From Candidatus Uhrbacteria bacterium (GTDB lineage: Bacteria > Patescibacteriota > Patescibacteriia > UBA9934): 57,930 nt of DNA. A program made the position numbers and the translations under genes. The notes under the pieces were generated by a model. It was not told where the DNA came from and searched no databases. It saw only the letters and a program-made list of their open reading frames with translations. The stretch is taken from positions 1 through 57,930 of the forward strand of contig CALRGY010000003.1 of assembly GCA_943358395.1 (NCBI GenBank), written 5' to 3'. This document shows positions 1-43,029 of the stretch, in pieces (the first letter of the stretch is position 1; every line of letters starts with the position of its first letter).

Positions 1-77
1 TGGCGGGACGGACGGGACTCGAACCCGCAACCTCTGCCGTGACAGGGCAGCGCTCTAACCAGTTGAGCTACCGACCC
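1..77 (-). tRNA. tRNA-Asp(GTC)
   Basis: Reverse complement GGGTCGGTAGCTCAACTGGTTAGAGCGCTGCCCT-GTC-ACGGCAGAGGTTGCGGGTTCGAGTCCCGTCCGTCCCGCCA folds as a cloverleaf. Encoded CCA, discriminator G73, U4:U69 mismatch in the acceptor stem. Confidence 0.97.
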
Positions 78-37281: not shown

Positions 37282-38151
37282 CTACATCGTCGCCGCCGCC
37301 TCCACCACAACCGTCCCCGTCATTTCTTCGTGATATCCACAGTGATAGGTATAAATCCCTGGGGTATCGAATCTGCGCACAAAGCTTTCTCCCGACTTCA
37401 TGGTTCCCGTTCCCCACGCATTATCATCTGCGGTTGCGGTATGGTTCACCGAATCATTATTCGTCCACTTCACTGTCTGACCAGCGGTGATTGTTGTGGT
37501 TGCATCGGCAGCCATCAACGAACCAAAGGCCATATCCTCAATAGGAATCCAGGTATAATTTGATAAGCTCTTATCGTCAGTGATCGAAGCCGTTCCACTC
37601 CACACACGACTCACAAAGAACGCTGCTCCCGATGCTGAATCTTGCACAATATCCGTGGTAAGTGACTCACCGATGGTGTAATTCGTAAAGAATCCATCAA
37701 GCACATCATCAATTGCCGTATTCCAACTTGCCCCGTACAACAAAACCGCAGTTGCTTCATCCGTCACCCACTGCAACGTGCCACCTTGATTCACGAAGTA
37801 TGTCTTTGGATCGGAATTGATCTTAATCATTTTACTTCCTGGTCTGTACGTCACGTTCCCTCCCATCTGAATTTTCGCCAATTCCGCGTCACTAATCGTC
37901 TTCACCGATGAGAAATCAAGTTCCCCAGTTTCTGCATCCGTATACCACGTTGCATATGTTTTTTCATTTGGAAACACATAACGGAACCCATCTTCACCCA
38001 TGTAGTACACCGCAGAGAATGACGTACCACGAATCAAATCACCAGGCTCCGCTGCCACCGTGCTTTCCGCATACACCAGCGCAAACGGCACTATGGAACC
38101 AAGAACACTCATTACCGTGAGTACCGACGCAAAACGGGAAAAAACATTCAT
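37282..38151 (-). CDS. Secreted protein: CPR-type N-terminal repeat domain plus cupredoxin (plastocyanin/amicyanin-like) domain
   Basis: Signal peptide; GQTVKWTNNDSVNHTAT...YTYHCGYHEEMTGTVVV supplies His/Cys/His/Met type-1 copper ligands. Confidence 0.85.
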   Translation of the reverse strand: MNVFSRFASVLTVMSVLGSIVPFALVYAESTVAAEPGDLIRGTSFSAVYYMGEDGFRYVFPNEKTYATWYTDAETGELDFSSVKTISDAELAKIQMGGNVTYRPGSKMIKINSDPKTYFVNQGGTLQWVTDEATAVLLYGASWNTAIDDVLDGFFTNYTIGESLTTDIVQDSASGAAFFVSRVWSGTASITDDKSLSNYTWIPIEDMAFGSLMAADATTTITAGQTVKWTNNDSVNHTATADDNAWGTGTMKSGESFVRRFDTPGIYTYHCGYHEEMTGTVVVEAAATM

Positions 38152-38293: not shown

Positions 38294-39166
38294 TTATTCT
38301 TCGATCACGGTGATTATACCAGTCACTTCTGGGTGGTAGCTATCGTAATAGGAATAATCACCTACCGCATCAAACCGATGTACAAACGATTCTCCCGGCT
38401 GCAACGTGCCAGTGCCCCAGCTATTATCATCAGCAGTTGCCGCGTGAACAACGGCGTCTGCATTGGTAAATCGCACCGTATTGCCGACAGAGATATAAAA
38501 TGTGCCGCCGTAAATTCCCGAGAGCGAATACGTCGTGATTCCTGCAAGTTCATTGCTCATAAAATTCACACGTGGTGGAACTTTCATGACCCAAGAAAAG
38601 TTTTGGCTAATTCCAGCCGTCTCCTCAAAAGTATTCGCGACAAATATCGTCGCATCCTTCAAAGGTACGTCGTTCAATACATCGCCGATAACATAATTCC
38701 CGAAGAATCCATCCGGAATATCGTCAATCTTCGACTGCCATGCCGATCCATAGAGTGCAGCTGCCATCTCTTCAGAAGGAACCCATCGCAATGTTCCGCC
38801 TTGCGTTACCATATACGTCTTCGGGTCACTAGCGATCTTCACCATCTTGCTTCCCGGTCGATACGTCACGTTTCCTCCCATTTGAATATCAGCAAGCTCA
38901 GCATCGCTGATCGTCTTTACCGTCGAAAAATCGGCATACCATGTAAAGTATGTTTTTTCATCGGGAAAGACATAACGCAGTCCATCCGGCGCCATGAAAT
39001 ACACGGACGAGAACGTGGTGCCACGAATAAGATCGTAAGCTTCTGCTGTTGTTTCAGTAGCATGAACAGGAGCAAGTGGCATAAGACCGATGATGAGACT
39101 CATCACTGCAAACGTCGACAAGAATCGTGATGATAATTTCATAGACGAAGAAAAATACTTGTTCAT
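38294..39166 (-). CDS. Paralog of 37282-38151 with degenerate cupredoxin site
   Basis: Same domain layout with high similarity; GNTVRFTNADAVVHAAT...YSYYDSYHPEVTGIITV (Cys to Asp, Met to Val). Confidence 0.82.
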   Translation of the reverse strand: MNKYFSSSMKLSSRFLSTFAVMSLIIGLMPLAPVHATETTAEAYDLIRGTTFSSVYFMAPDGLRYVFPDEKTYFTWYADFSTVKTISDAELADIQMGGNVTYRPGSKMVKIASDPKTYMVTQGGTLRWVPSEEMAAALYGSAWQSKIDDIPDGFFGNYVIGDVLNDVPLKDATIFVANTFEETAGISQNFSWVMKVPPRVNFMSNELAGITTYSLSGIYGGTFYISVGNTVRFTNADAVVHAATADDNSWGTGTLQPGESFVHRFDAVGDYSYYDSYHPEVTGIITVIEE

Positions 39167-39173
39167 TGTAACA

Positions 39174-40487
39174 CTACGGTCTCAATCGCTGGACATCACG
39201 AGGAAAGATTGTTGCTTCTTTGACGTTGGATAATCCAAGAACATTTTGGGTTAATCGTTGCAAGCCAATGGCGAAGCCGCCTTCTGGAGGAATGCCGAAT
39301 TTGTGCATAGTGAGATAATCTTCGAAATCTTTTGGATCTAATCCTTTCTCCACAATCCGAGCAAGTTGTTCATCGTATCGATTGATGCGCATGCCTCCCG
39401 ACGTGATCTCACTTCCGAATCCGATGACGTCGAATGAAAGCGTGTTCTCAGGATTTGCTGGGTCGGGTTTTACATAGAACGCACGCTTTGTTGCTGGCCA
39501 ATCGGTAACAAAGACGAAGCCACAGTTGTGATGTTTCACCGACCACACTGTCGATAACCAGCGCTCTGCGGCTGGCGAAAGATCAGGCTCGTTTGTCTCA
39601 TCGATTCCTGCCTCGTCACGATACGCTTCGAGCGCCTGTTTCAAGGTGATTCGAGGAAATCGGTCGCCAAGTGGTGGCAATGTCACATCGAGCAGTTTGA
39701 TTTCGACGGCACATTCTTTCTCGACCGTCGCCATCATTTCTCGAATAACACCTTCCTCGACCTCCATCAATTCTTCCATATCCGTCACAAACCCCATCTC
39801 GAACTCGAATTGATTGAACTCGGTCAAATGCCGTGACGTCGCAAACTTTTCTGCGCGAAATGAATACGACAGTCCATAAACACCCTCGTAGACTCCCATC
39901 GTGATCTGTTTGTAGAGCTGTGCCGATTGCGTGAGCGTTGCTTCTCTTCCGTAATAATCGACCTTGAAAAATTCAGCACCGCCTTCACTTGCTGCACCAG
40001 AAAGCACAGGGAAAAAGATTTCCGTAAATCCTTGACGCTCCATGAACGATCGATAGCCATGAACAAGTGCGGCTTGCACGCGAAAAATTGCGCGCTGTTT
40101 TGGATGACGAAGGGTGATGACACGATTATCGAGCAAGGTATCGAGCTGAACATCGAGCACTGGCTTGCCGATTTCAACCGGTACAACGTCGATGACGGGC
40201 GAAAGGATTTCGAGTTTCTCGACCTGCATCTCCACTTCTTTCATCGACGGATCCTTCGATTTCTTCTCCACGATCTTGCCGGTGACAGATAGTACAGTTT
40301 CGACCTGAAGTCCTTTAAGCTGCTCAAGTTGTTCGGCGTTCAATACGGTCTGCGCCAAACCAGATCGATCACGAATAATCGCAAAACCAAATTTACTCAT
40401 GTCGCGCAAGCTATTAAGCCAACCTGCAATGGTTACTGTTTCGCCGAGCTTTGATGGGAGGTCTTTGATGAGTGTTCTGTTTTTCAT
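39174..40487 (-). CDS. aspS: Aspartate--tRNA ligase, archaeal/non-discriminating type
   Basis: About 437 aa without GAD insertion; LDNRVITLR, SEGGAEFF, LTQSAQLYKQ, FRAE...SRHLTEF, EITSGGMRI, PPEGGFAIGLQRL, FPRD..RL.P. Confidence 0.88.
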   Translation of the reverse strand: MKNRTLIKDLPSKLGETVTIAGWLNSLRDMSKFGFAIIRDRSGLAQTVLNAEQLEQLKGLQVETVLSVTGKIVEKKSKDPSMKEVEMQVEKLEILSPVIDVVPVEIGKPVLDVQLDTLLDNRVITLRHPKQRAIFRVQAALVHGYRSFMERQGFTEIFFPVLSGAASEGGAEFFKVDYYGREATLTQSAQLYKQITMGVYEGVYGLSYSFRAEKFATSRHLTEFNQFEFEMGFVTDMEELMEVEEGVIREMMATVEKECAVEIKLLDVTLPPLGDRFPRITLKQALEAYRDEAGIDETNEPDLSPAAERWLSTVWSVKHHNCGFVFVTDWPATKRAFYVKPDPANPENTLSFDVIGFGSEITSGGMRINRYDEQLARIVEKGLDPKDFEDYLTMHKFGIPPEGGFAIGLQRLTQNVLGLSNVKEATIFPRDVQRLRP

Positions 40488-40513
40488 ACGTCGTATTGGT
40501 CCTATAAGTCTTA

Positions 40514-41821
40514 TTAGGGTGTTGATCGGTTCAGCATTCTTGGAAATGCGATGGTTTCGCGAATGTGGTGCACGCCGGTGATCCATCGAACCGTTCGTTC
40601 AAGCCCGATGCCGAATCCGGAGTGCGGCACACTTCCGTACTTTCGCGTGTTCAAGTACCACTCATACTCTGCTAACGGATAATTTCGATCAACAATTTCT
40701 TTTTTGAGCATCTCGTAACTCTCCTCACGCTGGCTGCCACCAATAATCTCTCTTCCCTCTTCTGGTGCAATCAGATCGGCACATCGCGCACGAAGTACGC
40801 CAGCATCATCGGTATACCGTTTCATGTAGAACGACTTAATCTCTGCGGGATAATCTTCGATGAACACCGGAAGCTTGTACGTATTCCCAAGGGCAATCTC
40901 CTCTTCCGTCGACATATCACCGAGAAGGTCGACGGGCTCGATCGTGAGTTTCTCGTCATGAAGAATCTTTTTCGCCTCGGAATGTTTCAAATGAACGAAT
41001 GACTCATTCACGATCCGTTCAAGGATCGTCGTGTCTCGCTCCAGAATCGCAAGCTCTTGTTTGCAGTGATCGAGGACATCTTTCACAATCCGCTTCACCA
41101 TCTTTTCTTGAATATCCATGTTCATCGCTTGATCGAAATACGCCATTTCTGCATCCATCATCCACAGTTCGCTCAAGTGATGACGCGTCTTGCTCTTCTC
41201 TGCGCGGAATACAGGACCAAAGTCGTACACCTTTCCAAAGCCCATAATCCCTGCCTCGCTATACAGCTGACCGGATTGGGAGAGATACTTTGGATCGCCG
41301 TAGTAATCGACCTGGAAAAGCTGCGTGGTATCTTCGCAACTTGTCGGCTGAATGATTGGAGTATCGAAACGAATGAATCCTTCTTCGTGAAAGAACTGTT
41401 CGATGCTAAAAAATACGCGATCGCGAATGCGTAACACTGCCCACGGCGTCTGCGATCGGAGATACAAGTCGCGATTCTCGAACAAGAATTCTGGACCATG
41501 TTCCTTCTTCCCGATCGGATAATCTTCCGGCGCAACGTGCACCATCGTGAACCCCGTTCCCTGAATCTCAAATCCCGATGGTGATCGGGGCTCTGCCTTC
41601 ACAATACCCTTCACTATCACCGATGACTCAATACGAACGCCCTGCAACGATTCCCACGCCGCGGCATCAATATCTTGTGGCGAATACACAACTTGTACTC
41701 TTCCAGAACCATCCCGAAATTGCAGAAAGTAAATCTTTCCACTCGATCTAAAGTTATACGCCCAGCCCTTCAGCTCAACTTCCTGCCCGACCATGGATGA
41801 GAGTTGTGAAATATATGTCAT
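40514..41821 (-). CDS. asnS: Asparagine--tRNA ligase
   Basis: YPIGKKEHGPEFL..RDLYLRS, YLSQSGQLYSEA, FRAEKSKTRHHLSE, EIIGGSQRE, YGSVPHSGFGIGLER. Confidence 0.95.
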   Translation of the reverse strand: MTYISQLSSMVGQEVELKGWAYNFRSSGKIYFLQFRDGSGRVQVVYSPQDIDAAAWESLQGVRIESSVIVKGIVKAEPRSPSGFEIQGTGFTMVHVAPEDYPIGKKEHGPEFLFENRDLYLRSQTPWAVLRIRDRVFFSIEQFFHEEGFIRFDTPIIQPTSCEDTTQLFQVDYYGDPKYLSQSGQLYSEAGIMGFGKVYDFGPVFRAEKSKTRHHLSELWMMDAEMAYFDQAMNMDIQEKMVKRIVKDVLDHCKQELAILERDTTILERIVNESFVHLKHSEAKKILHDEKLTIEPVDLLGDMSTEEEIALGNTYKLPVFIEDYPAEIKSFYMKRYTDDAGVLRARCADLIAPEEGREIIGGSQREESYEMLKKEIVDRNYPLAEYEWYLNTRKYGSVPHSGFGIGLERTVRWITGVHHIRETIAFPRMLNRSTP

Positions 41822-42107
41822 AAAAAGAAAAATTCGCCTGTACAGAACCACAATGGAATCATTATGGAGCTATACGGGCGAAGTTACTCGCGGTGCCACC
41901 GTACTTTTCCGTCAACAGCTTTTGGCCGATTTTCGATTCACTCGTCAGAAATTTGCTCAACGTACCGCGAAGTACGCCTCGCAAATTTCCTTCCTCGTTC
42001 ATCGAAACTCGTCGCAAGATCTGTCGCCGGACTCGTTTCTATTTTATCGATCACCGAATCCAAAAGTTGTTTGCTTTTGGCGCGCGCTGTCACGGCGTGC
42101 AGTCAGT
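41822..42107 (-). promoter_or_regulatory. T-box riboswitch leader of asnS-aspS (transcription attenuator)
   Basis: Antiterminator TACGG-TGGCACC-GCGA-GTAACT-TCGC-CCGTA (T-box GGTGGCACCGCG at 41889-41900). It is mutually exclusive with terminator TTCGCCCGTATAG..CCATAATG-ATTC-CATTGTGG..CTGTACAGGCGAA plus TTTTTCTTTTT right before the asnS ATG. Confidence 0.85.
41909..42030. repeat. Repeat family A copy 7, at the stem III position of the T-box
   Basis: ccgtcaacag...caacgtaccgcgaagtacgcctc...ctgtcgccgg. Confidence 0.82.
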
Positions 42108-42113
42108 AGAGGG

Positions 42114-42142
42114 AGTGTAGCACGGGAACCTGATCCTTTGAA
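42114..42142 (-). promoter_or_regulatory. Putative promoter of the T-box/asnS-aspS transcript
   Basis: TTCAAA-17 nt-TACACT with extended TG. Confidence 0.55.
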
Positions 42143-42234: not shown

Positions 42235-43029
42235 TTATACCGCCACTGGCACTGCCAACACTCCTGTCCAAAACGGCATCACCATTTCTCCGGGCACGTG
42301 ATACACATACACATCGTGCACGCATTGCACAAAATCCTCAACCTGATTACCGATCAATGGAAGGCGCATGAGAGATTCGTACGTTTCGTCGCGCCCAATG
42401 CGCATTAACGTAACGATCTCTTCGTTCATCGGTCGCGCCGAAAACCAATCTTCGGGGCTCGTTTGCACACAATCCGAACAGACCAATCCGCCCCGCCCGC
42501 CGTGCCAACGAAATGAAAGCGGAAGAACGTTTTTTCGACACGCAAGGCAATCGTGGAGCTCGACGCCGTATCCCAATCTACTTAACAAGCGAAGGATTGT
42601 TGCACCAAGAACAAAGGCACTTCGCGTATTATGCAGCGAAACTTGTGCGTTAAGAAAACGGACAAGACCAATCACATCATCGAACAATTCTGGATCCGCA
42701 AGGTCTGGCCGAATTGCCTTTGCGAGCATAGCGAATAACGTTTGCGTAAACATCCGATGTTCAAGATTCGTCTGAATCCGATCAAAAACCTCGCGGCGTT
42801 CAACGCCAATAACAGTCGTTGATCGCGCACTTTTAACAATCTCAAGATCCACAACAGCAAAAGGCTCCAAATGCGCCGCAAGTTTTGCTCTCGGTTTTTG
42901 CGCACCCCGCCCTACAAACTCAATCAATCCATAATCGGGGGTCAGTGCGCTATACCAGCGATCAGACTCTCTCCACGCCGATGATGTCAGCACGATTGCA
43001 GTGGTTTTTAATGCTGACCACATACTCAT
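42235..43029 (-). CDS. recO: DNA repair protein RecO
   Basis: AIVL....RESDR....LT...G......GAQKP..KLAAHLEPF; CLAC...GGLVCSDC zinc finger. Confidence 0.92.
   Translation of the reverse strand: MSMWSALKTTAIVLTSSAWRESDRWYSALTPDYGLIEFVGRGAQKPRAKLAAHLEPFAVVDLEIVKSARSTTVIGVERREVFDRIQTNLEHRMFTQTLFAMLAKAIRPDLADPELFDDVIGLVRFLNAQVSLHNTRSAFVLGATILRLLSRLGYGVELHDCLACRKNVLPLSFRWHGGRGGLVCSDCVQTSPEDWFSARPMNEEIVTLMRIGRDETYESLMRLPLIGNQVEDFVQCVHDVYVYHVPGEMVMPFWTGVLAVPVAV

Follow-up and report, generated by a model that had tools for sequence, protein, structure and literature searches.

How can a T-box riboswitch recognize a tRNA, and which tRNA does it recognize, when two small hairpins, one with an Asn codon (AAC) and one with an Asp codon (GAC) in its loop, take the place of a long Stem I? 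This question is raised by the leader of the asnS-aspS operon in the window, the whole 57,930-nt stretch of Candidatus Uhrbacteria DNA that was analysed. The assembly to which the window belongs has a size of 912 kb and a completeness of 97.6%, and its closest relatives, among the matches listed, carry the labels Patescibacteria group or Candidatus Uhrbacteria. The preliminary description, which had placed the DNA in a genome of the candidate phyla radiation (CPR), is borne out in this respect.

The leader lies on the minus strand, within the 413-nt gap between recO (42235-43029) and asnS, and is 286 nt long, extending from about 42107 to 41822. The genes, the tRNA, and the promoter that are considered with it are as follows.

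40514-41821, minus strand: asnS, asparagine--tRNA ligase, 435 aa (NF003037, 494.6 bits, cut-off 414; TIGR00457, 418.6 bits)
39174-40586, minus strand: aspS, archaeal-type, longest ORF (NF003483, aspartate--tRNA(Asn) ligase, 451 bits, cut-off 353)
1-77, minus strand: tRNA-Asp(GUC), anticodon loop CUGUCAC, 3' end GCCA (G73), found by ARAGORN and Rfam
42114-42142, minus strand: putative promoter, with a -35 element TTCAAA (42142-42137), a 17-nt spacer, TG (42122-42121), and a -10 element TACACT (42119-42114)

The aspS gene directly follows asnS, either abutting or overlapping it, and the gene order is the same in relatives. Since the family match of AspS begins at residue 34, the true start may be further in. 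Within this genome (G000), aspS appears to be the sole AspRS gene, gatB is present, and an asparagine synthetase of family TIGR01536 was not found. Because aspS scores as the type that charges tRNA(Asn) and gatB is also present, both operon genes can feed the formation of Asn-tRNA, which explains an Asn specifier on an asnS-aspS operon. Sister genera seem to form Asn-tRNA by different routes; this genome has asnS, an archaeal-type aspS, and gatB, and asnS was not found at E <= 1e-60 in 6 of the 22 genomes of family f1 that were searched, all of them 96-100% complete. Downstream of aspS on the minus strand lie a 290-aa ORF (38294-39166) that has no match in Pfam or NCBIfam and a gene for a 289-aa protein (37282-38151) with a C-terminal cupredoxin-like domain. 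The tRNA-Asp gene with a GCCA end, previously seen at 1-77, is present there on the minus strand and is 100% identical in five further genomes of the genus. ARAGORN also reports a tRNA with a four-base anticodon (tttc, labelled Lys/Glu) and a normal CCA end at G000:C18:18342-18417, which could be a frameshift-type tRNA or a mis-call.

The promoter had been predicted as TTCAAA and TACACT separated by 17 nt. This assignment stands only in part: a promoter scan of the region gave 0 sites above threshold, but TACACT is kept in all 12 related leaders. Its distance to the AAC loop downstream is 44-46 nt in 10 of 11 aligned leaders (the figure for L181 is mis-anchored) and ~45 nt in G009. Transcription is predicted to start near 42107.

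A terminator-type T-box core

The asnS-aspS leader is a genuine terminator-type T-box. Its 3' portion contains the two alternative structures expected of this name.

41873-41903, minus strand: antiterminator, aligned to RF00230 positions ~183-216 at the top posterior probability
41822-41882, minus strand: intrinsic terminator, with a hairpin at 41882-41833 and a U-tract at 41832-41822 (MFE and consensus folds)

The antiterminator is composed of UACGG (41903-41899), the bulge UGGCACC (41898-41892), a GCGA/UCGC helix (41891-41878), and CCGUA (41877-41873). The terminator hairpin occupies the 3' half of this structure, and the two folds are thus mutually exclusive; the U-tract (UUUUUCUUUUU, 11 nt, U-rich) leads into the asnS ATG at 41821. 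Compensatory changes are present at four pairs of the terminator upper stem among five leaders, and the fold of the leader has z = -6.0 relative to shuffles. All of these elements had been located at the same positions before, and the T-box with terminator action that they were taken to form is upheld by the RF00230-aligned antiterminator, the competing hairpin (41882-41833), and the compensatory changes.

The Infernal search with RF00230 that had been proposed as a check does yield a match, in which the antiterminator half is the part placed with top confidence. Its score of 24.4 bits lies below the gathering score of 93, with an E-value of 0.0019 in a search of 551 nt and of 7.5e-4 when the search extends to the whole genome; it is the best family match of the region, which contains no T-box at the Rfam threshold. 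The sequence GGUGGCACC is found upstream of asnS at 12 of 12 loci of genus g1/g2 with a complete upstream region and at none of 15 loci in genomes of the order that are more distantly related.

The variable T-box base is C (41895), which makes the tRNA-binding motif UGGC (41898-41895). This had been said to imply a tRNA with discriminator base G73, and both candidates qualify: according to ARAGORN, tRNA-Asn(GUU) ends in GGAGCCA and tRNA-Asp(GUC) in CCCGCCA. The genome contains only one other T-box-like match.

L001 1501-1755 = G000:C6:35682-35936, minus strand: the other T-box of this genome, located before thrS (37.3 bits, under the Rfam threshold)

The thrS leader has UGGA, which corresponds to U73 in all three tRNA-Thr, and above its K-turn (AGUGA...GA) lies a 7-nt terminal loop, CUACCAC, that contains ACC-A. 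The variable base of UGGN therefore agrees with the discriminator base of the cognate tRNA in both the asnS and the thrS leader, and the combination of a specifier codon and a purine is found in the asnS leader as AAC-A, in the loop of the hairpin called P1b below. The thrS T-box is the commonest T-box in the family (12 loci).

Stem I as a three-way junction

A classical long Stem I had been judged to be missing, and a structure with a K-turn, a specifier internal loop, an AG bulge, and a distal loop is indeed not found in the leader. Stem I is a 57-nt three-way junction, joined through a linker to a large Stem III.

42052-42108, minus strand: Stem I three-way junction, 57 nt (RNAalifold and covariation)
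42082-42100, minus strand: hairpin P1a, GCACGC / CGUGACA / GCGCGC, with one A.C mismatch
42060-42080, minus strand: hairpin P1b, the predicted Asn specifier hairpin, CCAAAAG / CAAACAA / CUUUUGG
42032-42051, minus strand: single-stranded linker, ending in the conserved AAYGAG (AACGAG, 42037-42032; alignments)
41908-42031, minus strand: expanded Stem III, 124 nt, with the base UCCGGCGACAG / CUGUUGACGGA (MFE and consensus folds)

The two small hairpins of the preliminary description are real, with covarying stems and invariant loops, but they are not free-standing. They are the arms of a junction that is closed by an outer helix, P1 (UACUGA 42108-42103 / UCGGUG 42057-42052). The comparison is based on 12 junction leaders, which come either from a single genus of Patescibacteria or from metagenome contigs: that of the window, G012, G005, G008, G010, G007, G001, G006, G011, G009, and two metagenome contigs. 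RNAalifold predicts P1, P1a, and P1b on 11 of these leaders without guidance. Standard pairs fill 94.1% of the cells, compared with 32-55% when the partners are slid by 1-3 columns, and the covariation score of 0.484 (0.06-0.18 when slid) is reached by none of 500 shuffles. Changes on both sides are seen at 8 of 14 pairs, including 5 of the 6 in P1b; the shuffle mean is 5.3, and 7 of 500 shuffles reach 8. In the twelfth leader, G009, an A-U pair of P1 is replaced by G-C, and the stem of P1a covaries as UCGC/GCGA, GCAC/GUGC, and GGCAU/AUGCC.

The loop of P1a is CGUGACA (42094-42088), with GAC at 42091-42089; that of P1b is CAAACAA (42073-42067), with AAC at 42071-42069 followed by the purine A at 42068. 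Conservation of both codons in homologous leaders, on which the earlier proposal depended, is complete: GUGACA and CAAACAA are each invariant in 12 of 12 junction leaders. An altered GAC or AAC was seen neither among the 80 matches listed of at least 119 matching stretches in a genome scan, nor in a metagenome scan (6 loci, 2 of them new), nor in a covariance-model search of 68 genomes of the family; nor did these scans contain a GAU or other codon-level variant of the P1a loop.

P1a follows P1 with no linker or one base, so that P1 and P1a can stack. As the alignment is read, P1 and P1a together lie at the place of the canonical Stem I hairpin, and P1b branches from the 3' side. In alignments read by eye, a K-turn, a Stem II, and a IIA/B pseudoknot are absent between P1 and Stem III. 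A GA..GA-flanked specifier hairpin is likewise not found in L101, L115, or L135, and the matches to such a pattern in L078, L112, and L123 fall inside Stem III. A K-turn inside P1a was considered and rejected, as the 3' strand has no conserved GA.

The ~130-nt middle of the leader is the expanded Stem III. The AAYGAG that precedes it is also found before Stem III in canonical asnS and aspS leaders, as the alignments are read. Its inner hairpin contains an S-turn-like internal loop (GAAC... / ...AGUGA); this internal loop of the long form, GAACGAGGAAGG / CUGACGAGUGA, is highly conserved and is absent from half of the leaders. Stem III is long in five leaders, intermediate in G009, and reduced to a hairpin of ~16-35 nt in six short-form leaders. 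Because the end points are not the same and the forms are interspersed on the tree, repeated deletion is suggested. The leader had been called miniaturised, which does not fit this copy: at 286 nt it is not short, because of its 124-nt Stem III. Two other placements were rejected. Rfam sets a K-turn and Stem IIA/B on 42063-41960, which is spurious because this stretch consists of the 3' strand of P1, the linker, and the expanded Stem III that is lost in six relatives. Similarly, hairpin 42010-41925, with GAC-G in an internal loop, is not the real Stem I; it is part of the expanded Stem III and has no counterpart in six relatives.

T-boxes are not foreign to this order, since RF00230 matches are present in 36 of 61 related genomes, three of them above the gathering score; the suggestion of a lineage without characterised T-boxes is to this extent withdrawn. 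The alignment contains two architectures, a canonical form and the junction form. The canonical form (G003, G013, G014, G029, and several MAG contigs) has a K-turn, a short helix, and one terminal loop with GAACA, followed by Stem II with an AGUAGAA S-turn, a IIA/B pseudoknot whose strands covary (UUGC/GCAA versus UUCGC/GCGAA), Stem III, and the antiterminator. The canonical build is shared by CPR aspS leaders, whose loop is C-N-GAC-A-C. Of 54 asnS or aspS leaders, 41 match a pattern search for a hairpin that is flanked by GA..GA and carries a codon for Asp or Asn plus a purine, some of the 41 being chance matches elsewhere in the leader. The loops of some CPR aspS T-boxes read AAC rather than GAC (for example, CUAACGA in L080), so that aspS would be under the control of tRNA-Asn in some lineages and of tRNA-Asp in others. 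Elsewhere in the order, L003-L012 are T-boxes with a long Stem I that score 55-99 bits, of which three exceed the Rfam threshold; they appear to have the Trp specifier UGG-A. They precede genes for PEP-synthase-like, trpD-like, and unnamed ~270-aa proteins; one would not expect a Trp T-box to control a PEP-utilising enzyme.

The junction form is restricted to a single genus. With a covariance model of the junction, 10 of the genus's 14 genomes give matches with E-values of 3e-17 or lower, and the other four consist of two with the canonical form, one with a masked stretch, and one with a contig end; in other genera of the family, none of 54 genomes gives a match below E 0.01. The asnS tree unites eight junction or masked rows in one clade (support 99/95) and leaves G006 unresolved, a pattern compatible with a single origin of the junction form. 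Judged from these alignments, the junction sensor is evidently a derived form, and leaders of the sister type represent its ancestors. What is new is the junction with two anticodon-complementary loops.

Which tRNA the junction may read

The leader is probably a transcription-attenuating T-box riboswitch of the asnS-aspS operon in which tRNA-Asn is read by P1b. In such a mechanism the anticodon of uncharged tRNA-Asn(GUU) would pair with AAC of the P1b terminal loop, and the A after AAC would play the usual role of the conserved purine. The free G73-C-C-A end of the tRNA would pair with UGGC in the antiterminator bulge. The antiterminator would then be stabilised relative to the terminator (41882-41833), and RNA polymerase would read into asnS and aspS. 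Charged tRNA would be unable to hold the antiterminator, and as a result transcription would stop at the U-tract. The motifs and alternative folds, the covariation, the agreement of UGGN with the discriminator base, and the conservation throughout the genus are results of this analysis; from these we infer tRNA binding and read-through.

The position of AAC within its loop agrees with this assignment. A terminal-loop AAC followed by a purine had been pointed out before, and its register proves to equal that of canonical terminal-loop specifiers: AAC occupies loop positions 3-5 and the purine position 6, exactly as for ACC of the thrS T-box and GAC of CPR aspS T-boxes. Reading of Asn is also favoured by the relatives with a K-turn and a single loop, which carry GAACA before the same operon. 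Against it count the low Rfam score, the coaxial position on P1 of P1a rather than P1b, and a weak anchor, as AAC-GUU alone is worth -2.1 kcal/mol versus -9.3 for P1a with the tRNA-Asp loop (duplexfold). In addition, apart from the codon and the NCCA contact, every tRNA-gripping module named in the available portion of PMC7583486 is absent.

The other arm, P1a, is a selected functional part at the place of the old Stem I loop. Among the 47 tRNAs predicted for the genome, an exact complement of its GUGACA is found at a single place, U33-C38 of tRNA-Asp, and together with the next G (present in 10 of 11 aligned leaders, and in G009) the loop complements the whole tRNA-Asp loop CUGUCAC. By arithmetic, 4 of 4096 hexamers would complement the Asp or Asn anticodon loop in this way. 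The same hexamer lies in GUGACAC, the specifier loop of a canonical aspS T-box (L116), and U-GAC-A is the commonest Asp loop core. A pseudoknot partner for the loop was sought within the leader and rejected, as no site is common to all 12 leaders. We think that P1a contacts the anticodon region of a tRNA; it may either help to hold the weak AAC-GUU helix in place of Stem II or itself read tRNA-Asp.

If P1a itself reads tRNA-Asp, the leader would be a dual sensor in which a junction with two separate specifier hairpins replaces the K-turn, Stem II, and pseudoknot, with P1b reading tRNA-Asn and P1a tRNA-Asp. This arrangement, as had been proposed for the two hairpins from the start, is possible but doubtful, and the same holds for the accompanying idea that either uncharged G73 tRNA might bridge to UGGC and turn on the operon, each hairpin perhaps bracing the codon-anticodon helix of the other. 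It would account for a GUGACA that stays invariant while its stem covaries, for the exact complement unique to tRNA-Asp, for the same hexamer in a canonical aspS specifier loop, and for the lack of a conserved partner inside the leader. Since aspS is apparently the sole AspRS gene, sensing of tRNA-Asp at this operon would be useful too, and a T-box responding to two tRNAs has a precedent (Saad 2013, as presented in the accessible part of PMC4052509). However, the complementarity is partly post hoc, because the reader was looking for GAC. In 8 of the 12 leaders GAC is shifted by one position from the canonical register of a 7-nt loop, with no unpaired base after the purine, and no GAU or other variant reveals selection at the level of the codon. 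Whether the GAC and AAC loops covary with the downstream synthetase had also been proposed as a check. A correlation of the second hairpin with the operon layout was rejected, as leaders with a single AAC loop likewise control asnS-aspS in G003, G013, G014, and L067; the operon thus does not need a second specifier.

The role of P1a could also be purely architectural, so that the junction and a purine-bearing loop position and clamp the AAC-anticodon helix and GAC is a by-product of the old Stem I. The sister leaders make this about as likely as the dual sensor, though we hold it only tentatively: the junction form has lost the three modules that are present there, and part of P1a corresponds, as we read the alignment, to the old Stem I in G003 and G013 (GGCGAC...ACCGCC), but for the AAC segment, which is missing. 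Moreover, CAAACAAC is invariant well past its codon, and invariance of a loop therefore need not mean pairing with a tRNA. Such a role would leave the 6-7 nt match to the anticodon loop of the operon's one other tRNA as a coincidence, and the known T-box clamps described in the available part of PMC7583486 are S-turn purine strings, not hairpin loops. A complete switch to Asp is improbable. In that case P1 and P1a would be the true Stem I, reading tRNA-Asp, and the A-rich P1b would be derived from the 5' strand of Stem II (AAGAAC) and act only as an adenine clamp. P1a does stack on P1 at the canonical specifier position, pairs far more strongly with its tRNA loop (by the duplexfold energies above), and leaves P1b where Stem II of the relatives begins. 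However, the first gene is asnS, AAC is present in all sister leaders, and AAC-A sits in the exact canonical loop register.

Relation to known T-boxes and significance

The asnS leader shares with canonical transcriptional T-boxes (RF00230; Bacillus tyrS and glyQS types) an antiterminator, bulged at UGGN-ACC, in competition with an intrinsic terminator, the match between UGGN and the discriminator base, a specifier composed of a codon and a purine, and an aminoacyl-tRNA synthetase operon as its target. Unlike them, it has no long Stem I, AG bulge, distal-loop platform, or K-turn, and its specifier is in a terminal loop. [quoted passage not shown] Actinobacterial ileS T-boxes with an "ultrashort" Stem I were reportedly described by Sherwood et al. 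in 2015, and structures from Mycobacterium and Nocardia are said to exist. Both they and the asnS leader have a specifier on a very short Stem I without an elbow-binding platform. [quoted passage not shown] The resemblance to the ileS Stem I that the preliminary description had drawn extends to the terminal-loop specifier, but not to the K-turn, Stem II, IIA/B, or a translational platform.

The nearest systems are the K-turn terminator T-boxes before asnS or aspS in Patescibacteria and other MAGs. Their antiterminator is nearly the same (AAGUA[A/C]GGUGGCACCGCGA), they have the AAYGAG-Stem III module, and in the nearest relatives they precede the same operon. They differ in having one loop, a K-turn, a Stem II with its AGUAGAA S-turn, and IIA/B. 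The "NT-box" of Clostridium acetobutylicum (Saad et al. 2013), as described in the accessible part of PMC4052509, has two overlapping codons, for Asn and Glu, in one loop on a long Stem I. It is similar in that a response to two tRNAs, one of them tRNA-Asn, has been proposed, and in that its operon serves the supply of Asn-tRNA. In contrast, the asnS leader has two separate candidate loops, for Asn and Asp, on one junction.

The TBDB paper, in its available portion, describes a short-Stem-I model that was run on Actinobacteria and class I hits with a truncated Stem I. A search for literature pairing T-box riboswitches with Patescibacteria, the candidate phyla radiation, or Saccharibacteria found none; the TBDB supplements and its class II model may list such sequences. 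Because these leaders fall far under the Rfam threshold, they are missed by the standard annotation of Patescibacteria. The short-form relatives (~180 nt; 182 nt in L034) are compact test objects. We know of no T-box with two physically separate specifiers, and this leader, if P1a does read tRNA-Asp, would be the first such case. It would then be a natural OR-gate for two amino acids, which would be useful for engineered tRNA sensors.

The broader meaning concerns how little a T-box may need. As stated in the available part of PMC7583486, a long Stem I platform is generally required in transcriptional T-boxes, and those with a short Stem I depend on Stem II together with the pseudoknot. The T-box conserved in this genus is clearly under selection, and both the long Stem I platform and the Stem II/pseudoknot are missing from it. 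Consequently, either tRNA recognition by T-boxes can be far more minimal than has been thought, or the second hairpin is a new module that grips or reads the tRNA.
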